IMG/VR virus record: IMGVR_UViG_2684622669_000006
Coordinates: 1 to 6,753 of that record
Length of the DNA stretch: 6,753 nt
Reading direction: 5' to 3' (one strand)
Source: a virus
Lineage: Duplodnaviria; Heunggongvirae; Uroviricota; Caudoviricetes
The position numbers and the translations under genes were made by a program. Below, piece after piece: positions 1 through 5,050 of the stretch. How positions within the stretch are numbered: the first letter of the stretch is position 1; every line of letters starts with the position of its first letter. The notes below the pieces were generated by a model. The model had not been told where the DNA came from. It made no database searches and worked only from the letters and a program-made list of their open reading frames with translations.

Positions 1-46
1 AAACGCGTGCTTTTGCGCCCGGGCATAAAGTTTTGAGGATTAACAA

Positions 47-577
47 ATGACCACTATAACCAAAGGGCGACTGCTGACAATCAAGCAGTGGCGCGAAACA
101 TACGGACCGGGTAGCAACGTTGTACTGCCAGCAGAAGAAGCAGAAGAACTGGCACGGATTGCACTGGCATCGCTGGAAGCAGAGCCAGTGGCGTGGAAGG
201 CAACCTTCACGCAAATTGACAATAAATATAATACGTTCACCACTATGTATTCTGACAAAGCAGAAGTCGAACGCTGGGTGCGACTGCATGAAATAGGTGA
301 CTTTCGGGCAGAAATAACACCGCTTTACGCAGCGCCGTCAGCGCCGGTAATTCCGGATGGTTGGATAAGCTGTAGTGAGCGGATGCCTGAAAAGAACCAG
401 AACGTGCTTATTTCGGTGAATTTCGATAGCTCTCTGGTTGAACCGCTAATATGCTCCGCACGCTATACAGGAAGCACATTCCGGCGAGGAGAAGCAACGA
501 TTAAGCCGGGTAATGGTATTGAGCAGGCAACTCACTGGATGCCGCTACCGGAACCACCGCAGGAGGTGAATCAATGA
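47..577 (+). CDS. Phage hypothetical protein with C-terminal DUF551-like domain
   Basis: 176-aa ORF with GAGG Shine-Dalgarno at 35-38, 8 nt before ATG 47. The C-terminal segment (DGWISCSERMPEKNQNVLI ... THWMPLPEPP) matches what I remember of the DUF551 domain common in lambdoid early-region proteins. Assignment is from memory, not a search. Confidence 0.65.
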   Translation: MTTITKGRLLTIKQWRETYGPGSNVVLPAEEAEELARIALASLEAEPVAWKATFTQIDNKYNTFTTMYSDKAEVERWVRLHEIGDFRAEITPLYAAPSAPVIPDGWISCSERMPEKNQNVLISVNFDSSLVEPLICSARYTGSTFRRGEATIKPGNGIEQATHWMPLPEPPQEVNQ

Positions 578-657
578 CCTGGCCTGAAGCATTCACAATG
601 GTAGGAATTGCGATGGCGGTGGCGCTGGTGGTGTATTCGATTTGCCGCTGGGGATAA
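574..657 (+). CDS. Small hydrophobic peptide (27 aa, MTWPEAFTMVGIAMAVALVVYSICRWG), predicted single transmembrane helix
   Basis: ATG 574-576 overlaps the TGA stop of the upstream gene (ATGA). A near-perfect SD AGGAGGT at 561-567 sits 6 nt upstream. The product is almost entirely hydrophobic with a C-terminal RW, and the bidirectional terminator follows directly. Confidence 0.45.
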   Translation: MTWPEAFTMVGIAMAVALVVYSICRWG

Positions 658-663
658 CAAACA

Positions 664-692
664 AAAACCCCGGATTGATGGTCCGGGGTTTT
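664..692. terminator. Bidirectional rho-independent terminator between convergent operons
   Basis: Stem CCCCGGA (668-674) pairs with TCCGGGG (682-688) around a 7-nt loop. It is flanked by an A-run (663-667) and a T-run (689-692), so it reads as a hairpin plus U-tract on both strands. It lies between the plus-strand peptide stop (657) and the minus-strand antitoxin stop (714). Confidence 0.6.
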
Positions 693-713
693 GCTATTCA
701 TGGTGAATTTTTA

Positions 714-1031
714 TTAACAGATTGACTGAATTCCGTTTTTCTCAACCACAGAAAGCAAACGAAGGGCAGGGCCACCAGGGCGCTTTATTCCCCTTTCCCA
801 GTCTGAAATGAGGTTTTTACTGACATTAAGATATCTGGCGAAAACAGGTTGAGACAGATGCTCGCGCTCGCGAAGTGCCCGGATTCTTTCTGGCGACATT
901 GTTGGCGCTGGTTGCAGACAGAGTTCATCAAACTCTCTCATAGTTTGTTTTGTAACTGCGCCAATATCCTGAAGTGACTCCATCATTTCATGTACGGATG
1001 CAAGTGCATCACTGCGGTAATTTTTACTCAT
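714..1031 (-). CDS. Type II antitoxin, HTH DNA-binding (MqsA/HigA-2-like, COG2944-type C-terminal HTH)
   Basis: 105-aa ORF whose C-terminal half (SPERIRALREREHLSQPVFARYLNVSKNLISDWERGIKRPGGPALRLL) has the pattern of the HTH found in HigA-2/MqsA-type antitoxins. SD GGAGGT lies 5 nt upstream of the ATG (minus strand, within the toxin 3' end). The start overlaps the toxin stop by 8 nt (ATGAGTAA). Confidence 0.8.
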   Translation of the reverse strand: MSKNYRSDALASVHEMMESLQDIGAVTKQTMREFDELCLQPAPTMSPERIRALREREHLSQPVFARYLNVSKNLISDWERGIKRPGGPALRLLSVVEKNGIQSIC

Positions 1032-1395
1032 TGGGTACCTCCGTAAACTGACCTTGCAGGATCAATTGCGCCAGTTGTTCATCAGTAAGATTGAGAACGT
1101 GATGCGCAGCTTTTCGAAATGCGTTTTCCTCGATGGCTGTAATATTTTCTCTCTCATTCTTTGCGTACGCATAGATGAAAAAAGCCTTTTCTGCGACGCG
1201 GTAAAAAATTATTGTCCTATAACCGCCTGATTTACCGCCACCTCTTCGGGCTAATCGCTGCTTAATGACACCACTACCCAAATCTGCGGATATGAGTCCC
1301 TTATCAGCTAGTTCCACGACTTCTCGCAGAGCTTTATCGGAAATCCGATTTTTTCGTGCGAAGCGTTCAAACCAGGCATTTTTGAAAATGCGCAT
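1024..1395 (-). CDS. Type II toxin, RelE/ParE superfamily (HigB-2 / DUF1044-like); start uncertain (ATG at 1395 or 1407)
   Basis: The coding part of the 171-aa track ORF starts at MEPNMRIFKNAWFERFARK. The Gly-rich motif RRGGGKSGGYRTIIFY and YAYAKNE match what I remember of HigB-2-family toxins. The upstream 44 codons of the track ORF are AT-rich and look non-coding. Neither candidate ATG has a good SD. Confidence 0.7.
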   Translation of the reverse strand: MRIFKNAWFERFARKNRISDKALREVVELADKGLISADLGSGVIKQRLARRGGGKSGGYRTIIFYRVAEKAFFIYAYAKNERENITAIEENAFRKAAHHVLNLTDEQLAQLILQGQFTEVPNE

Positions 1396-1411
1396 GTTTG
1401 GTTCCATACCG

Positions 1412-1436
1412 TTGTGTAATACATAGTGTGACACAA
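1412..1436. promoter_or_regulatory. Candidate operator: nested inverted repeats immediately upstream of the toxin start
   Basis: TTGTGT (1412-1417) and ACACAA (1431-1436) are an inverted repeat, with an inner palindrome TGTG-A-CACA (1427-1435). It sits in the AT-rich divergent intergenic region, directly 5' of the toxin ATG on the minus strand. Confidence 0.3.
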
Positions 1437-1636
1437 TTAAATAGGGCAGGCAATATCCATACAGAGGACTTGCTAAGGAATGGCGGCTCAAAAAACACTC
1501 TATTTTTAGAGTATACAAATGACAGAAAGAAAAAGTCATTGTTTTTTCTCATGAAATACGCATTTTTTGGGAGTGAAATCGTTATTTGTAGTGGATATAT
1601 TCCAGCCATGTTTTATCCAATACCAGAGGTTTTACA

Positions 1637-1849
1637 ATGCAGAAGTTGATCGCCGCGAATTGTAAGTACGCAGTTATTCGTTGTGACGATATGTCGGTTG
1701 TAGCTGAAATGGATTGTTTTCCGGATGGAGCCAGAGCTGTATGGCATCGAAAAGGGAACATGCTTAGGGTAAGAGCTTTGCGGGCTGATGAGCGAATTGT
1801 ATCGAAAACAGTGCTCAGGGAGATCGTGTATCAGTTTATGCGGACTTGA
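1637..1849 (+). CDS. Hypothetical protein (70 aa)
   Basis: ORF with SD AGAGG (1625-1629) 7 nt before ATG 1637. It is divergent from the toxin-antitoxin operon. No recognisable motif. Confidence 0.5.
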   Translation: MQKLIAANCKYAVIRCDDMSVVAEMDCFPDGARAVWHRKGNMLRVRALRADERIVSKTVLREIVYQFMRT

Positions 1850-1913
1850 ACAAGTTGTATGTATCAACAATAATGCCACCCAAAATGGCTGAACACCATT
1901 TTACCTGACAAAG

Positions 1914-2213
1914 ATGCGCCAGCAGAGACAACCGATGGCGCACGATACCAAATTACACAATTCTGATAATCTCGCCGTCCCTGCCAGCAGGCGCGGGCGG
2001 CGTTCTCATGCATTCAAATCTGACTGGTTCCAGCATGATCCATGCACTGAAGAACAGGCCGAATGGCTGATTCAGAACTACCGCAGACGTGGTTACGAGT
2101 TTCAGAAAGACCTCAGCCTCGACTTCCGACACTGGATCATCTCAGTCAGACTGCCTTACTCTGAACGCCCACCGCGTCCGTCCCGCACATTCCAGCAACG
2201 GATCTGGAGGTAA
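1914..2213 (+). CDS. Hypothetical protein (99 aa); start uncertain (ATG 1914 or 1935)
   Basis: Its TAA stop (2211-2213) sits between the GGAGG SD (2206-2210) and the GTG start (2215) of the downstream gene, which indicates coupling. Where the two track ORFs overlap (2089-2213), this frame gives protein-like sequence and the other frame gives low-complexity S/T-rich sequence. No clear SD for either ATG. Confidence 0.45.
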   Translation: MRQQRQPMAHDTKLHNSDNLAVPASRRGRRSHAFKSDWFQHDPCTEEQAEWLIQNYRRRGYEFQKDLSLDFRHWIISVRLPYSERPPRPSRTFQQRIWR

Positions 2214-2214
2214 C

Positions 2215-3270
2215 GTGCGGGTATTACTTCGACCTGTTCTGGTACCGGAACTCGGGCTGGTGGTCCTTAAGCCAGGTCGTGAATCCATGCAGGTATTTCA
2301 CAATCCTCGAGTGCTGGTGGAGCCGGAACCCAAAAGCATGCGCGGTCTGCCGTCCGGCATCGTCCCTGACGTTCGCCAGCCGCTGGCGGAGGATAAATCA
2401 TTACTGCCATTTTTCAGCGACGAACGGGTGATTCGTGCTGCTGGTGGCGCTGGCGCATTGTCTGACTGGTTACTGCGCCATGTTAAATCCTGCCAGTGGC
2501 CACACGGCGATTATCACCACAGTGAAACCGTCATTCACCGTTATGGCGCTGGCGCGATGGTGTTGTGCTGGCACTGTGACAACCAGCTGCGTGACCAGAC
2601 ATCCGAATCACTCGAGCAACTTGCTCATCAAAACCTGTCAGCATGGATGATTGACGTCATCGGTCACGCAATAAGCGGTACGCAGGAGCGTGAATTATCT
2701 TTGGCTGAATTATCCTGGTGGGCGGTCCGCAATCAGGTGGCGGACGCGCTACCGGAAGCGGTATTACGTCGTTCGCTGGGGTTGCGTGCGGAAAAAATCC
2801 GCTCAATGTACCGTGAAAGCGACATCGTACCGGGAGAGCAGACCGCCACCAGCATACTGAAGCAGCGCACAAAAAATCTTGCGCCGCTGCCTCACGCCCA
2901 CCAGCAAAACCCGCCACAGGAAAAGACGGTGGTCAGCATTGCCGTTGATCCGGAGTCACCGGCTCAGTATCTCCAGCGCCAGAAACCACAACGGGAAGAG
3001 ATGCCTGTATACACGCGTTGGGTAAAAACGCAGAAATGCATGACGTGCGGTAATCAGGCAGATGATCCGCATCACATCATTGGTCATGGACTGGGAGGGA
3101 TGGGAACAAAGGCTGATGATTTGTTTGTTATTCCGCTGTGCCGTAAATGTCATAACGAACTGCACGCCGGGGTAAAAGATTTTGAAGAAAAACACGGCAG
3201 CCAGCTGTTGTTGCTGATTCGTTTTTTAATGCACGCGAGAAATTCGGGTGTCCTGAAGTGGAAAGCATGA
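2215..3270 (+). CDS. Phage nin-region protein, DUF968/YdfU-like, with C-terminal HNH-like Cys/His motif
   Basis: In-frame GTG at 2215 lies 4 nt after GGAGG, giving a 351-aa product starting VRVLLRPVLVPELG. The C-terminus (CMTCGNQADDPHHIIGHG ... LCRKCHNELHAG) looks like an HNH/zinc-binding nuclease motif. The first ATG of the track ORF (2089) adds an implausible low-complexity extension. It sits directly upstream of rusA, as in lambdoid nin regions. Confidence 0.7.
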   Translation: MRVLLRPVLVPELGLVVLKPGRESMQVFHNPRVLVEPEPKSMRGLPSGIVPDVRQPLAEDKSLLPFFSDERVIRAAGGAGALSDWLLRHVKSCQWPHGDYHHSETVIHRYGAGAMVLCWHCDNQLRDQTSESLEQLAHQNLSAWMIDVIGHAISGTQERELSLAELSWWAVRNQVADALPEAVLRRSLGLRAEKIRSMYRESDIVPGEQTATSILKQRTKNLAPLPHAHQQNPPQEKTVVSIAVDPESPAQYLQRQKPQREEMPVYTRWVKTQKCMTCGNQADDPHHIIGHGLGGMGTKADDLFVIPLCRKCHNELHAGVKDFEEKHGSQLLLLIRFLMHARNSGVLKWKA

Positions 3271-3651
3271 ATGACTGAACGCATAGAATTTGTTTTGCCT
3301 TACCCGCCGACGGTGAATACCTACTGGCGACGTCATGGCAATACGTATTTCATCTCGGAAGCCGGAAAGCGTTATCGCCGTGATGTGGCGCTAATTGTTC
3401 GCCAGCAGCGGCTGAAATTAAGCCTGTCCGGAAGGCTGGCGATAAAGATTATTGCAGAGCCACCGGATAAGCGCCGCCGCGACCTGGACAATATCCTGAA
3501 GGCACCACTGGATGCACTGACACATGCAGGACTGCTTATCGATGACGAGCAGTTTGACGAAATCAATATAGTGCGCGGTCAGCTCGTTCCTGGTGGGCGA
3601 CTGGGCGTGAAGATTTACGAAATAATGCATGACGGGCAGGTCAAAAAATGA
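3271..3651 (+). CDS. rusA: Crossover junction endodeoxyribonuclease RusA (Holliday junction resolvase)
   Basis: 126-aa product. PYPPTVNTYWRRH at the N-terminus and DKRRRDLDNILKAPLDALTHAGLLIDDEQ match the conserved RusA core (compare E. coli RusA PDRRRRDLDN ... DALT ... DD). ATG follows directly after the upstream TGA (TGAATG). Confidence 0.9.
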   Translation: MTERIEFVLPYPPTVNTYWRRHGNTYFISEAGKRYRRDVALIVRQQRLKLSLSGRLAIKIIAEPPDKRRRDLDNILKAPLDALTHAGLLIDDEQFDEINIVRGQLVPGGRLGVKIYEIMHDGQVKK

Positions 3652-4469
3652 AACTGGAAGATTTACCGAAATACTACTCCCCAAAATCGCCTGGCCTGAC
3701 TGATGCATCCGTCTCGACGTCAAAAGATACGCTGAGTATCACTGATGTGATGGCTGCGCAGGGTATGACACAAAACCGTGCTGAGATTGGATTTTCTGCG
3801 TTCCTGGGGAAAATGGGCATTAGTATGAATGACAGGGCGCGGGCAACAGAATTACTGGCAGATTATGCATTAAGTCAGTGCGATCGCGTGGCGGCGTTAA
3901 GAAAACTTCCGGCAGAAATAAAACCGGCAGTGATGCGCATTATGGCTTCGTATGCTTTTGAGGATTATGCCCGCAGCGCAGCGAGTAAAAAGCAGTGCCC
4001 TTGTTGCCATGGGGAAAAATTTATTGAAAGCGTAGTTTTTACAAACAAGGTTCAGTATCCGGATGGCAAGCCGCCAGTATGGGCAAAGTGTACGAAGGGT
4101 GTGTATCCGTCTTACTGGGAAGAATGGAAAAAAGTCCGGGAAGTGGTAAAAGTTGCCTGTCCTGAATGCGGGGGAAAGGGTGAGGTCTCCACCGCCTGTA
4201 AGGATTGCCGTGGGCGTGGTGTCGCCATTCATCGTGAAGAGTCGGTAAAACGTGGTATGCCTGTTATCAGGGACTGCCAGCGTTGTGGCGGTCGTGGCTA
4301 TGAAAGACTGCCATCAACGGAGGCATTTAATGCCATATGCGAGGTCACAAATCAGATAACACGCGCGTCATGGGAAAAAACTGTTAAGCAATTCTATGAC
4401 AAGCTGGTGGTTCGGTTTGACATTGAAGAGGCATGGGCGGAGCGACAGTTAAAAAAGGTAACCAGATAA
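3648..4469 (+). CDS. Putative late-gene antitermination protein Q (Q82/QuuQ-like), Cys-rich zinc-binding domain
   Basis: ATG overlaps the rusA stop (ATGA). 273-aa product with CPCC (aa 117-120) and three CxxCxGxG repeats (CPECGGKG, CKDCRGRG, CQRCGGRG; aa 171-217). Position is immediately upstream of a promoter plus terminator and the lysis genes. The Q assignment rests on synteny and the Cys cluster, not on direct homology. Confidence 0.5.
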   Translation: MKLEDLPKYYSPKSPGLTDASVSTSKDTLSITDVMAAQGMTQNRAEIGFSAFLGKMGISMNDRARATELLADYALSQCDRVAALRKLPAEIKPAVMRIMASYAFEDYARSAASKKQCPCCHGEKFIESVVFTNKVQYPDGKPPVWAKCTKGVYPSYWEEWKKVREVVKVACPECGGKGEVSTACKDCRGRGVAIHREESVKRGMPVIRDCQRCGGRGYERLPSTEAFNAICEVTNQITRASWEKTVKQFYDKLVVRFDIEEAWAERQLKKVTR

Positions 4470-4474
4470 CAAGG

Positions 4475-4502
4475 TTGATTTTTCCGGAATCTGTGGTAAA
4501 TT
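4475..4502 (+). promoter_or_regulatory. Candidate late promoter (PR'-like), sigma70-type
   Basis: TTGATT (4475-4480), 16-nt spacer, TAAATT (4497-4502), located 6 nt downstream of the Q-like gene stop. An intrinsic terminator follows about 50 nt downstream. Confidence 0.4.
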
Positions 4503-4552
4503 TGCATCTAACGATGGGCGTTTTGTGCCTGACGTTAGAAGAATTTTTACAG

Positions 4553-4575
4553 CCCGCCTCCAAGCGGGTTTTTTT
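4553..4575 (+). terminator. Rho-independent terminator (tR'-like)
   Basis: GC stem CCCGC (4553-4557) pairs with GCGGG (4564-4568) around loop CTCCAA, followed by seven T (4569-4575). Confidence 0.6.
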
Positions 4576-4696
4576 ATGCCCGAAAAGCGGTACGGTACAT
4601 TAAACACGCTGGTGGTCGTGAATACTGACTTTTTATCTTGCTGGCTTTTTAGACAAGAGTTATTGGTATGTCATGTTAACCAGAAGGGAAAAAGAC

Positions 4697-4900
4697 ATGC
4701 TAAAACAGCAAGATATGACAGAAACCGCCGCCGCAGTCCTTCATTTCTTACCTGCTGACAAGTGGGTAACGCCACGCATGATGACGAGAACTACCGGAGT
4801 AAGCGAAGCCCGGTGCCAGTTAATACTGACTCAGTTAGTTCTGGCGGGTCTGGCGAAGGATAACGGCGGGTACGGGAATAAATTCAGACGCTGCCAGTAA
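4697..4900 (+). CDS. Small hypothetical protein, possible winged-helix DNA-binding (67 aa; alternative start ATG 4673)
   Basis: SD AAGGG (4684-4688) 8 nt before ATG 4697. The product (MLKQQDMTETAAAVLHFLPADKWVTPRMMTRTTGVSEARCQLILTQLVLAGLAKDNGG) has a helix-turn-helix-like pattern. The DNA-binding assignment is inference. Confidence 0.45.
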   Translation: MLKQQDMTETAAAVLHFLPADKWVTPRMMTRTTGVSEARCQLILTQLVLAGLAKDNGGYGNKFRRCQ

Positions 4901-5050
4901 TGGCGGTTTCCTGCTGTGAAAATGGGCGGCTGGTGGGTGTTGGTAGCACCTGCCAGCCATTCGCTCATGCTTACTGGTCACAAGCGAACCACGGCCCACT
5001 GCTTTAGCGCAAAAGCAGAGTGAGCCTACCAGAGTTACGCTTACTGATCC

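Follow-up and report, generated by a model that had tools for sequence, protein, structure and literature searches.

A conserved phage-borne reading frame of 27 codons and the candidate MxWPxAF family of small membrane proteins

The last cistron of the early accessory operon in a lambdoid prophage is an open reading frame (ORF) of 27 codons, lying directly behind a DUF551 gene at positions 574 to 657 of the 6,753-nt stretch of phage DNA analyzed here (IMG/VR record IMGVR_UViG_2684622669_000006, positions 1 to 6,753; hereafter, the window). Its product, MTWPEAFTMVGIAMAVALVVYSICRWG, is read from an ATG on the plus strand to a TAA stop codon. We find that purifying selection acts on the encoded peptide, and comparison across phages indicates that the micro-ORF is very probably a genuine translated gene, the product of which can with good confidence be predicted to be a membrane microprotein. 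An earlier note on this DNA had proposed that the ORF is translated and that its hydrophobic product might be toxin-like, with a link to a nearby toxin-antitoxin (TA) module; the micro-ORF is confirmed as real, but the toxin and TA angle is not supported.

The first 1.5 kb of the window is overlapped by 27 ORFs that are 20 aa or longer; the micro-ORF is thus by itself not beyond chance, and the case for a gene rests on comparison with other sequences. Changes among 46 distinct haplotypes were reconstructed by parsimony on a neighbor-joining (NJ) tree, giving 152 changes in all (87 synonymous, 65 nonsynonymous), 95 of which fall at codon position 3; the ratio of nonsynonymous to synonymous rates (dN/dS) is about 0.22 in the micro-ORF frame across all haplotypes (binomial p = 1.5e-19), and the remaining forward frames have ratios of 1.3-1.5 (all >1.3). 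The first 80 IMG/VR loci had been picked by protein similarity, which biases a sample toward synonymous change, and we therefore drew a second, peptide-blind sample using a 16-nt DNA anchor in the DUF551 tail; here the count is 46 synonymous versus 36 nonsynonymous changes, with a dN/dS of 0.25 (p = 7.7e-10). The identical peptide MTWPEAFTTVGIAMAVALVVYSICRWG is encoded by about 25 nucleotide haplotypes, the observed length variants (25, 29, and 31-35 aa) are all in frame, and the stop codon, either TAA or TGA, falls at the same position in the contexts, with the ATG present. The conservation and synonymous-versus-nonsynonymous analysis that had been suggested as a check thus favors the peptide, and the conserved frame, start and stop, the low dN/dS, and the in-frame length variants make it very probable that the ORF is translated, as claimed. 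In-frame slippage of a (GCGATG)n repeat within the gene adds AM (or AV) repeats to the helix, extending it from 27 up to 35 residues (P0059-P0062; L218, 601-690).

The junction with the upstream gene is similarly conserved, and the stop/start overlap together with the Shine-Dalgarno (SD) sequence supports the proposed translational coupling to DUF551. ATGA or TGATG overlaps are the rule across the family contexts, 76 of 77 of which have an SD-like core upstream. Codon 2 begins with A in all 77 (ACC, ACT, AGC, AAC, AAT, or ATC), and serine at this codon is always AGC, never TCN, so that the upstream TGA is preserved. The strong ribosome-binding site described earlier, AGGAGGT at 6-nt spacing, is present, but it is not private to the micro-ORF: it is coding sequence of the conserved DUF551 tail (PQEV = CCG CAG GAG GTG), and many unrelated downstream genes are preceded by the same tail with the same overlap geometry. 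The WPEAF micro-ORF follows in only 28 of 120 hits of the DUF551-tail anchor. The conserved DUF551 C-terminus HWMPLPEPPQEV (window 541-577) has a built-in AGGAGGTG SD and then an ATGA, TGATG, or GTGATG overlap, and the tail acts as a movable junction ahead of dozens of cassettes unrelated to one another (loci L098-L216). Other phages have different small hydrophobic ORFs directly 3′ of DUF551, including MPPVKVVIITLVMIVIARIMSGEIGWIW, MNKCNALLYAMVIGFGLVAG..., MDSFAKYTIIDWIAFLQVLLIWFYMAY..., and MSLFRLTVAVILLMLAGLAGYAWERGK... (L143, L129/L154, L128/L152, L181, L214); a membrane-peptide slot that recurs after DUF551 is suggested.

The 84-nt sequence is present in 1634 of 5426 complete Escherichia coli genomes (about 30%), at 3110 places, with a maximum of seven per genome and 163 on plasmids. 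Matches were found by tblastn in 94 phage records, and 527 IMG/VR stretches encode relatives. Carriers include the Shiga-toxin (Stx) phages 933W and VT2-Sakai, ArgO145, PhiR12/PhiR5, and POCJ13, as well as the lytic Vequintavirinae phages Av-05 and TH18, and the P1-like phage-plasmid SJ46 carries a 24-aa variant. The ORF has exactly 27 codons in 80 of 89 non-redundant contexts, and the edges of homology are the ATG and the stop codon, while the flanking genes differ. In many genomes, the BLAST match begins at query base 55, corresponding to window position 574, and across the 89 contexts the upstream junction sequences fall into five or more classes and the downstream sequences into more than 20. 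The DUF551 domain is absent from four inspected upstream genes, those coding for a 114-aa protein without any Pfam domain, 933W L0139, Av-05 gp123, and SJ46 gp092. Cassette edges that match ORF ends are what phage mosaicism yields at genes, and the peptide gene travels among phages as a mosaic cassette with exactly the extent of the ORF.

There is no copy of the micro-ORF at the yfdS (DUF551)-yfdT junction of the K-12 prophage CPS-53, where yfdS runs into yfdT by an ATGA overlap (L221, 498-644); a small "toxic protein YodE" is annotated in the same prophage. In PhiR12-type E. coli phages, a gene for a DUF4222 protein comes after the micro-ORF, and in E. coli O145 RM9872 (L002, 2838-2942) an unrelated 34-aa single-helix ORF, WP_001278450.1 (MSDDISLAMEGALAVIAVVGVYCLVVFLMDRLGN), lies between the micro-ORF and hokD. 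This protein is annotated by RefSeq and found on about 1000 or more contigs, and it matched no Pfam, PHROG, or NCBIfam family.

The peptide also has more distant relatives. In a phmmer search of 1.84 billion representative sequences, the 30-aa in-frame translation had just 24 matches, all of the same family. A 28%-GC contig (L223; ENA ERZ27247121) encodes a recoded homologue, MNITNWPEAFTYIGCAFAIAIIFYSMFRWG, which over 25 aligned codons has 60% amino acid and 64% nucleotide identity, with the differences mostly at codon position 3, and Klebsiella prophages code for a 22-aa version, MDWPTAFCIVGCAFAIAWLFRS, at the same position near int. Scanning DNA for the pattern M-x-W-P-x-A-F-x-I-V-G identified 72 viral stretches, versus none for a control with scrambled residue order; the matches represent about 30 distinct peptides, nearly all of them hydrophobic ORFs of 21-33 aa, on contigs with a GC content of 0.36-0.63. 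The upstream stop is overlapped by 1 or 4 nt in 22 of 31 family members. In a 26-sequence alignment, W3, P4, A6, and G11 are invariant, and M1, A15, R25, and W26 are nearly so. Among 37 members, none has Lys or Arg in the N-terminus and 35 have Asp or Glu there, whereas 33 have Lys or Arg among the last seven residues; all 37 have Ala, Ser, or Gly four residues after the invariant Gly, a position that the search pattern leaves free.

As a family signature, we propose an N-terminal M-x-W-P-x-A-[FLI], a Gly four residues on, a small residue four after that Gly, a length of 21-33 residues, and a basic/aromatic C-terminal tail. The window peptide, which carries M1, W3, P4, E5, A6, F7, G11, A15, R25, and W26, has every element of this signature. 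Judging from these shared features, the MxWPxAF peptides appear to form a previously undescribed and unnamed family of phage microproteins, although of a known kind, the small membrane proteins encoded by phages. When high-GC variants were compared with cultured phages by tblastn, one variant had no match, and the matches of another were confined to phages of enterobacteria (Klebsiella and E. coli). A Pseudobdellovibrionaceae metagenome-assembled genome (L013) encodes a 65-aa protein with the start MTWPEAFAIVGVAF; this was set aside as a plausible but unproven member, as a chance pattern match is possible.

Several family loci have neighbors of some interest. Proteins encoded next to the homologue on the 28%-GC contig have weak Pkinase and PP2C hits, and the kinase-like protein has its only resemblance, about 33% identity, to proteins of uncultured "huge" phages of 460-600 kb. 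A 48-aa ORF (MNREFEIW.../MHKAFEVW...) without a Pfam family regularly follows the micro-ORF, a few nucleotides on, in Klebsiella-type prophages (Table 1), and one IMG/VR stretch (L248; GC 0.36) has tandem paralogous micropeptide ORFs 9 nt apart, MMWLTAFMIVGWILIITFWWRGL and then MDWPTAFTIVGCSFAILGVFWILVKA.

The product of the window ORF is hydrophobic, with a best 19-residue Kyte-Doolittle mean of 2.25 starting at residue 6, and five peptide variants have values of 2.25-2.42 from the same residue; the single hydrophobic helix noted earlier is thus borne out. Its C-terminal R-W is also present, but the true end is R-W-G. The N-terminus is acidic and the C-terminal tail basic, a positive-inside charge asymmetry from which we infer an N-out/C-in orientation.

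We propose that the micro-ORF is translated by coupling to DUF551, through the ATGA overlap and the SD within the last DUF551 codons. The acidic N-terminus (M-T-W-P-E) would then lie in the periplasm, followed by a helix of about 19 residues, with R25-W-G at the cytoplasmic face. The conserved G11-x-x-x-A15 would act as a helix packing motif, with the helix packing against a membrane protein partner, of either host or phage origin, or against itself, rather than acting as a stand-alone poison. A coupled cistron that closes a repressor-controlled early operon would be expressed on infection or induction and not in the quiescent lysogen, such that the peptide would act during lytic or early development. 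Overall, a coupled, early-operon, single-pass microprotein acting by helix packing is probably the best explanation, and its partner-binding component, suggested by the motif, is offered tentatively as a possibility. It is rather doubtful, albeit conceivable, that a pan-proteobacterial phage family (21-33 aa, in genomes of 28-63% GC) uses its conserved N-terminus near the periplasm, together with the packing motif, to target one conserved inner-membrane host machine, thereby controlling superinfection, lysis-lysogeny, or host takeover in Stx and other phages; the DNA-entry channel, FtsH/HflKC, YidC/Sec, and the divisome could be named as examples, speculatively.

Some observations weigh against a translated, functional membrane peptide. 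The antisense frame that shares the wobble position also has a low ratio (0.355), although the corresponding 66-aa antisense ORF (501-701, minus strand) was rejected because conserved starts and stops are lacking: a start codon lies upstream in only 24 of 85 contexts (24-29 for the two open antisense frames), and the ends are ragged. The substitution counts come from a simple NJ tree and Fitch parsimony applied to short, recombining sequences. About six of 89 contexts are disrupted: the Trp3 codon, TGG, has independently become TAG or TGA in POCJ13 (L095/L109), a viable sequenced Shigella phage, and in L209; L009 and L219 have a 1-nt deletion; and L134 has a decayed copy. Since broken copies exist, the gene is dispensable. 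The peptide is absent from the supplements of a ribosome-profiling study of enterohemorrhagic E. coli, which took only ORFs of at least 30 aa, and from the accessible part of the supplementary text of a survey of the Enterobacteriaceae microproteome (PMC11188072). Topology and mechanism, moreover, are both predicted by hydropathy, charge, and motif rules only.

A membrane-damaging peptide, type I toxin-like or holin-like, that depolarizes or permeabilizes the inner membrane alone, and possibly functions within a TA neighborhood, seems unlikely. It is true that the size and hydrophobicity recall toxins of the TisB, DinQ, ShoB, and Ibs types, that 52 of 81 contexts have a TA locus in the first kilobase downstream (43 hok, 7 ParDE, and 2 RelE/HTH; HTH, helix-turn-helix), and that the repeated occurrence of nonsense and frameshift alleles could be due to selection against a harmful product. 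However, no toxin family (Hok_Gef, Ldr, TisB, Ibs, ShoB, or others) is matched at E values up to 10 in Pfam and NCBIfam, nor is any at up to 0.1 in PADLOC; a consensus scan, which an atypical promoter could escape, found no minus-strand promoter-like site between 81 and 1509; and no Rfam antitoxin RNA reaches the gathering score within 400-1100. The SD is strong, unstructured (z = +0.53 versus shuffles), and linked to a preceding gene by coupling, just the reverse of type I toxins, whose translation is typically sequestered, and up to seven intact copies are tolerated per genome. Where hok is the neighbor, its promoter starts only past the micro-ORF stop, and the micro-ORF is outside the lysis cassette, with the holin gene about 5.5 kb downstream. 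Three defining features of type I toxins are thus not seen here: homology to a toxin family, an antisense RNA made from a promoter of its own, and a separate transcript on which the SD is sequestered. The TA link is one of position. The neighboring TA loci come from three families without relation to one another and lie in either orientation, and none of the three is present in 29 of the 81 contexts, a pattern that suggests a common site of insertion and not a common role. The RelE/ParE plus HTH module of the window occurs in just two of the 81, and it is convergent with the micro-ORF, with the terminator between them.

Two other accounts do without a free-standing functional peptide. In one, which we consider very improbable, the ORF is kept for the act of translation, either as a coupling spacer or as an upstream ORF controlling the terminator or downstream expression, or else the DNA or RNA is kept as a recombination junction or RNA element. 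A ribosome terminating at the stop, 7 nt short of the hairpin, could cover the left arm of the hairpin, the DUF551 tail is used again and again as a junction by many cassettes, and the many near-identical copies could reflect recent spread; but selection is seen at the amino acid level, in both the dN/dS of about 0.22-0.25 and the third-position excess, the same peptide is retained with more than 20 different downstream sequences, and the motif, charge pattern, and G-x-x-x-small arrangement are kept in recoded genomes of 28-63% GC. Nor is an RNA element favored by Rfam, in which the 400-1100 region matches no family at the gathering score; the weak hits cover the last part of the ORF and the hairpin behind it. 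The other account, that the peptide is a C-terminal membrane anchor added to the upstream protein by frameshifting or fusion, has very little probability in our estimate. Two database clusters (143 and 206 aa; P0068 and P0073) do have an Ea22-like protein running in frame into MSWPDAF...RWG without a stop, and in several loci the micro-ORF frame is open for some codons upstream, resulting in extended 40-45-aa annotations. Such in-frame fusions are rare, however, no slippery heptamer is seen in the window sequence 5′ of the stop at 575-577, and the overlap of 1 or 4 nt in most family members is classical reinitiation geometry; with an ATG and SD kept in 76 of 77 contexts, and upstream genes (DUF551, the 114-aa protein gene, and those for 933W L0139, Av-05 gp123, and SJ46 gp092) that are mutually unrelated, neither frameshifting nor fusion is likely to be the principal mode. 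At one locus (L224, 156-776), an Ea22-like coiled-coil protein reads stop-free into MSWPDAFAIVGVAMSIALIVFAIYRWG; the 206-aa form is confirmed on the contig and is possibly a natural tail-anchored fusion.

A lambdoid prophage of E. coli Z1323CEC0005 matches the window with 100% identity; the features of the window are listed in Table 1. At this locus, YdaS/YdaT-like genes are followed, in order, by replication genes, DUF1627, Ea22-like genes, DUF4752, DUF551, and the micro-ORF, after which come the convergent RelE/ParE and HTH pair, DUF968, RusA, a Q-type antiterminator, a DNA methyltransferase, the holin, and lysozyme. The earlier note had also counted an immediately following terminator in favor of the ORF. 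A stable hairpin does begin 7 nt past the TAA (ΔG of -19.9 kcal/mol, z = -3.3, and none of 200 shuffles equally stable), but this type of downstream class is present in only about eight of 89 contexts, and the hairpin serves mainly the opposite strand. Although the free energies on the two strands are close (-19.9 and -19.1 kcal/mol), the consensus scan assigns the terminator to the minus strand, where UUUUUGUUUGUU comes next; only UUUU GCUAUUC follows on the plus strand. The hairpin is a common end of two convergent units, mainly serving the TA operon, and is not part of the cassette. In some genomes, a block consisting of the micro-ORF, hairpin, and TA genes travels behind a different upstream gene, with matches beginning at window position 574.

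Table 1. Coordinates of features in the window and of an ORF in a related locus
Feature	Position	Strand	Description
Microprotein gene	574..657	+	27 aa, MTWPEAFTMVGIAMAVALVVYSICRWG; predicted single-pass N-out/C-in membrane peptide
DUF551 gene, 176 aa	47..577	+	PF04448, Pfam E = 5.7e-23; DUF551 in RefSeq annotation of identical locus
Shine-Dalgarno AGGAGGT	561..567	+	6 nt 5′ of the ATG, inside DUF551 codons P-Q-E-V
ATGA stop/start overlap	574..577	+	DUF551 TGA at 575-577 overlaps the micro-ORF ATG
G+C-rich bidirectional hairpin terminator	664..692	both	Context-specific, outside the conserved cassette
Type II TA module	714..1395	-	HTH regulator/antitoxin 714-1031, RelE/ParE-family toxin 1024-1395; RefSeq annotation of identical locus
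Klebsiella-type follower ORF	L225 1280-1426		Homologues in L227, L235, L262, L266, L268, L269, L281, L296

The earlier remark that gene callers drop such short ORFs applies here, as the RefSeq Prokaryotic Genome Annotation Pipeline (PGAP) leaves the micro-ORF unannotated in the window-identical locus and in every other RefSeq E. coli locus opened. The common variant is called by some GenBank submitters, as "bacteriophage protein," "Prophage protein," or hypothetical (for example, AOM45384.1 and ASL59396.1), and an exact-sequence look-up in a collection of 15 billion proteins did not find the T9M variant of the window. No Pfam, NCBIfam, PHROG, or PADLOC model matches the peptide significantly, the best sub-threshold matches being KdpF, at 14.1 bits with a cut-off of 26.85, and two PHROGs without a known function, at E values from 0.01 upward; no chain among the PDB sequences matches, and a full-text literature search for the peptide strings found no paper. 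Apparent DUF551 fusions in 90%-identity clusters (121- and 185-aa representatives) were rejected as a clustering artefact, as the sequences lack the peptide; 27-aa peptides are nevertheless filed in clusters represented by DUF551 proteins, and some are labeled "DUF551 domain-containing protein," which could mislead annotation transfer. A second "hypothetical protein" under the match in the Stx1 phage NC_004913 was likewise discarded, as an over-annotated antisense ORF and not the micro-ORF.

If the peptide is made, then about 30% of complete E. coli genomes hold at least one copy of a conserved membrane-protein gene that reference annotation omits. Its carriers include the classic Shiga-toxin phages 933W and VT2-Sakai, and the gene lies in the poorly understood Ea22-like/DUF551 early accessory region. 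In lambda and the Stx phages, genes of the exo-xis region, lambda ea22 included, affect the choice between lysis and lysogeny, and thereby Stx-prophage induction; a DUF551 C-terminal domain occurs in one Ea22 variant of an Stx phage (PMC10834534). With 27 residues, four invariant positions, and a packing motif, the peptide would offer an easy genetic and biochemical handle and, being widespread, a test case for the use that phages make of microproteins at the membrane of their hosts, and a simple profile could let annotation pipelines recover the whole family.

Among described systems, one comparison is with the microprotein clusters predicted computationally in the Enterobacteriaceae (Fesenko et al., "The Cryptic Bacterial Microproteome," PMC11188072). 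These resemble the micro-ORF in being intergenic, 15-70 codons long, under purifying selection, mostly hydrophobic, without Pfam domains, and often collinear and 3′ of a gene; unlike them, the MxWPxAF peptide has no name, description, or family in the libraries searched. The type I toxins Hok/Gef, TisB, DinQ, ShoB, Ibs, and Ldr are similar in size, hydrophobicity, and a positive charge near the C-terminus, and hok is often the next gene downstream, but the peptide differs from them in having no homology to them, no antisense RNA or promoter of its own that we could find, an accessible and coupled SD, and predicted expression from a phage early operon.

T4 Imm and Sp, HK97 gp15, and P22 SieA are early phage membrane proteins that block superinfection or DNA entry. 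They are larger (80-160 residues), with more than one helix or with soluble domains, and no similarity to the peptide was detected, but they are phage-encoded inner membrane proteins, as is predicted for the peptide, and like it they come from non-structural early or accessory regions, are dispensable for plaque formation, and occur in temperate as well as lytic phages. AcrZ, MgtS, MgtR, PmrR, KdpF, and CydX are small single-pass inner membrane proteins of enterobacteria that modulate larger membrane proteins. The peptide has no sequence relationship to this group and is instead phage-borne, the product of a coupled early-operon cistron, and marked by its MxWPxAF N-terminus; it nonetheless shares with them a length below 50 residues, one hydrophobic helix with short flanks, and a tendency to be missed by gene callers. 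Small proteins of the AcrZ and MgtS type act through helix-helix contacts in the membrane, and the G-x-x-x-(A/S/G) motif of the peptide would fit this mode of action.

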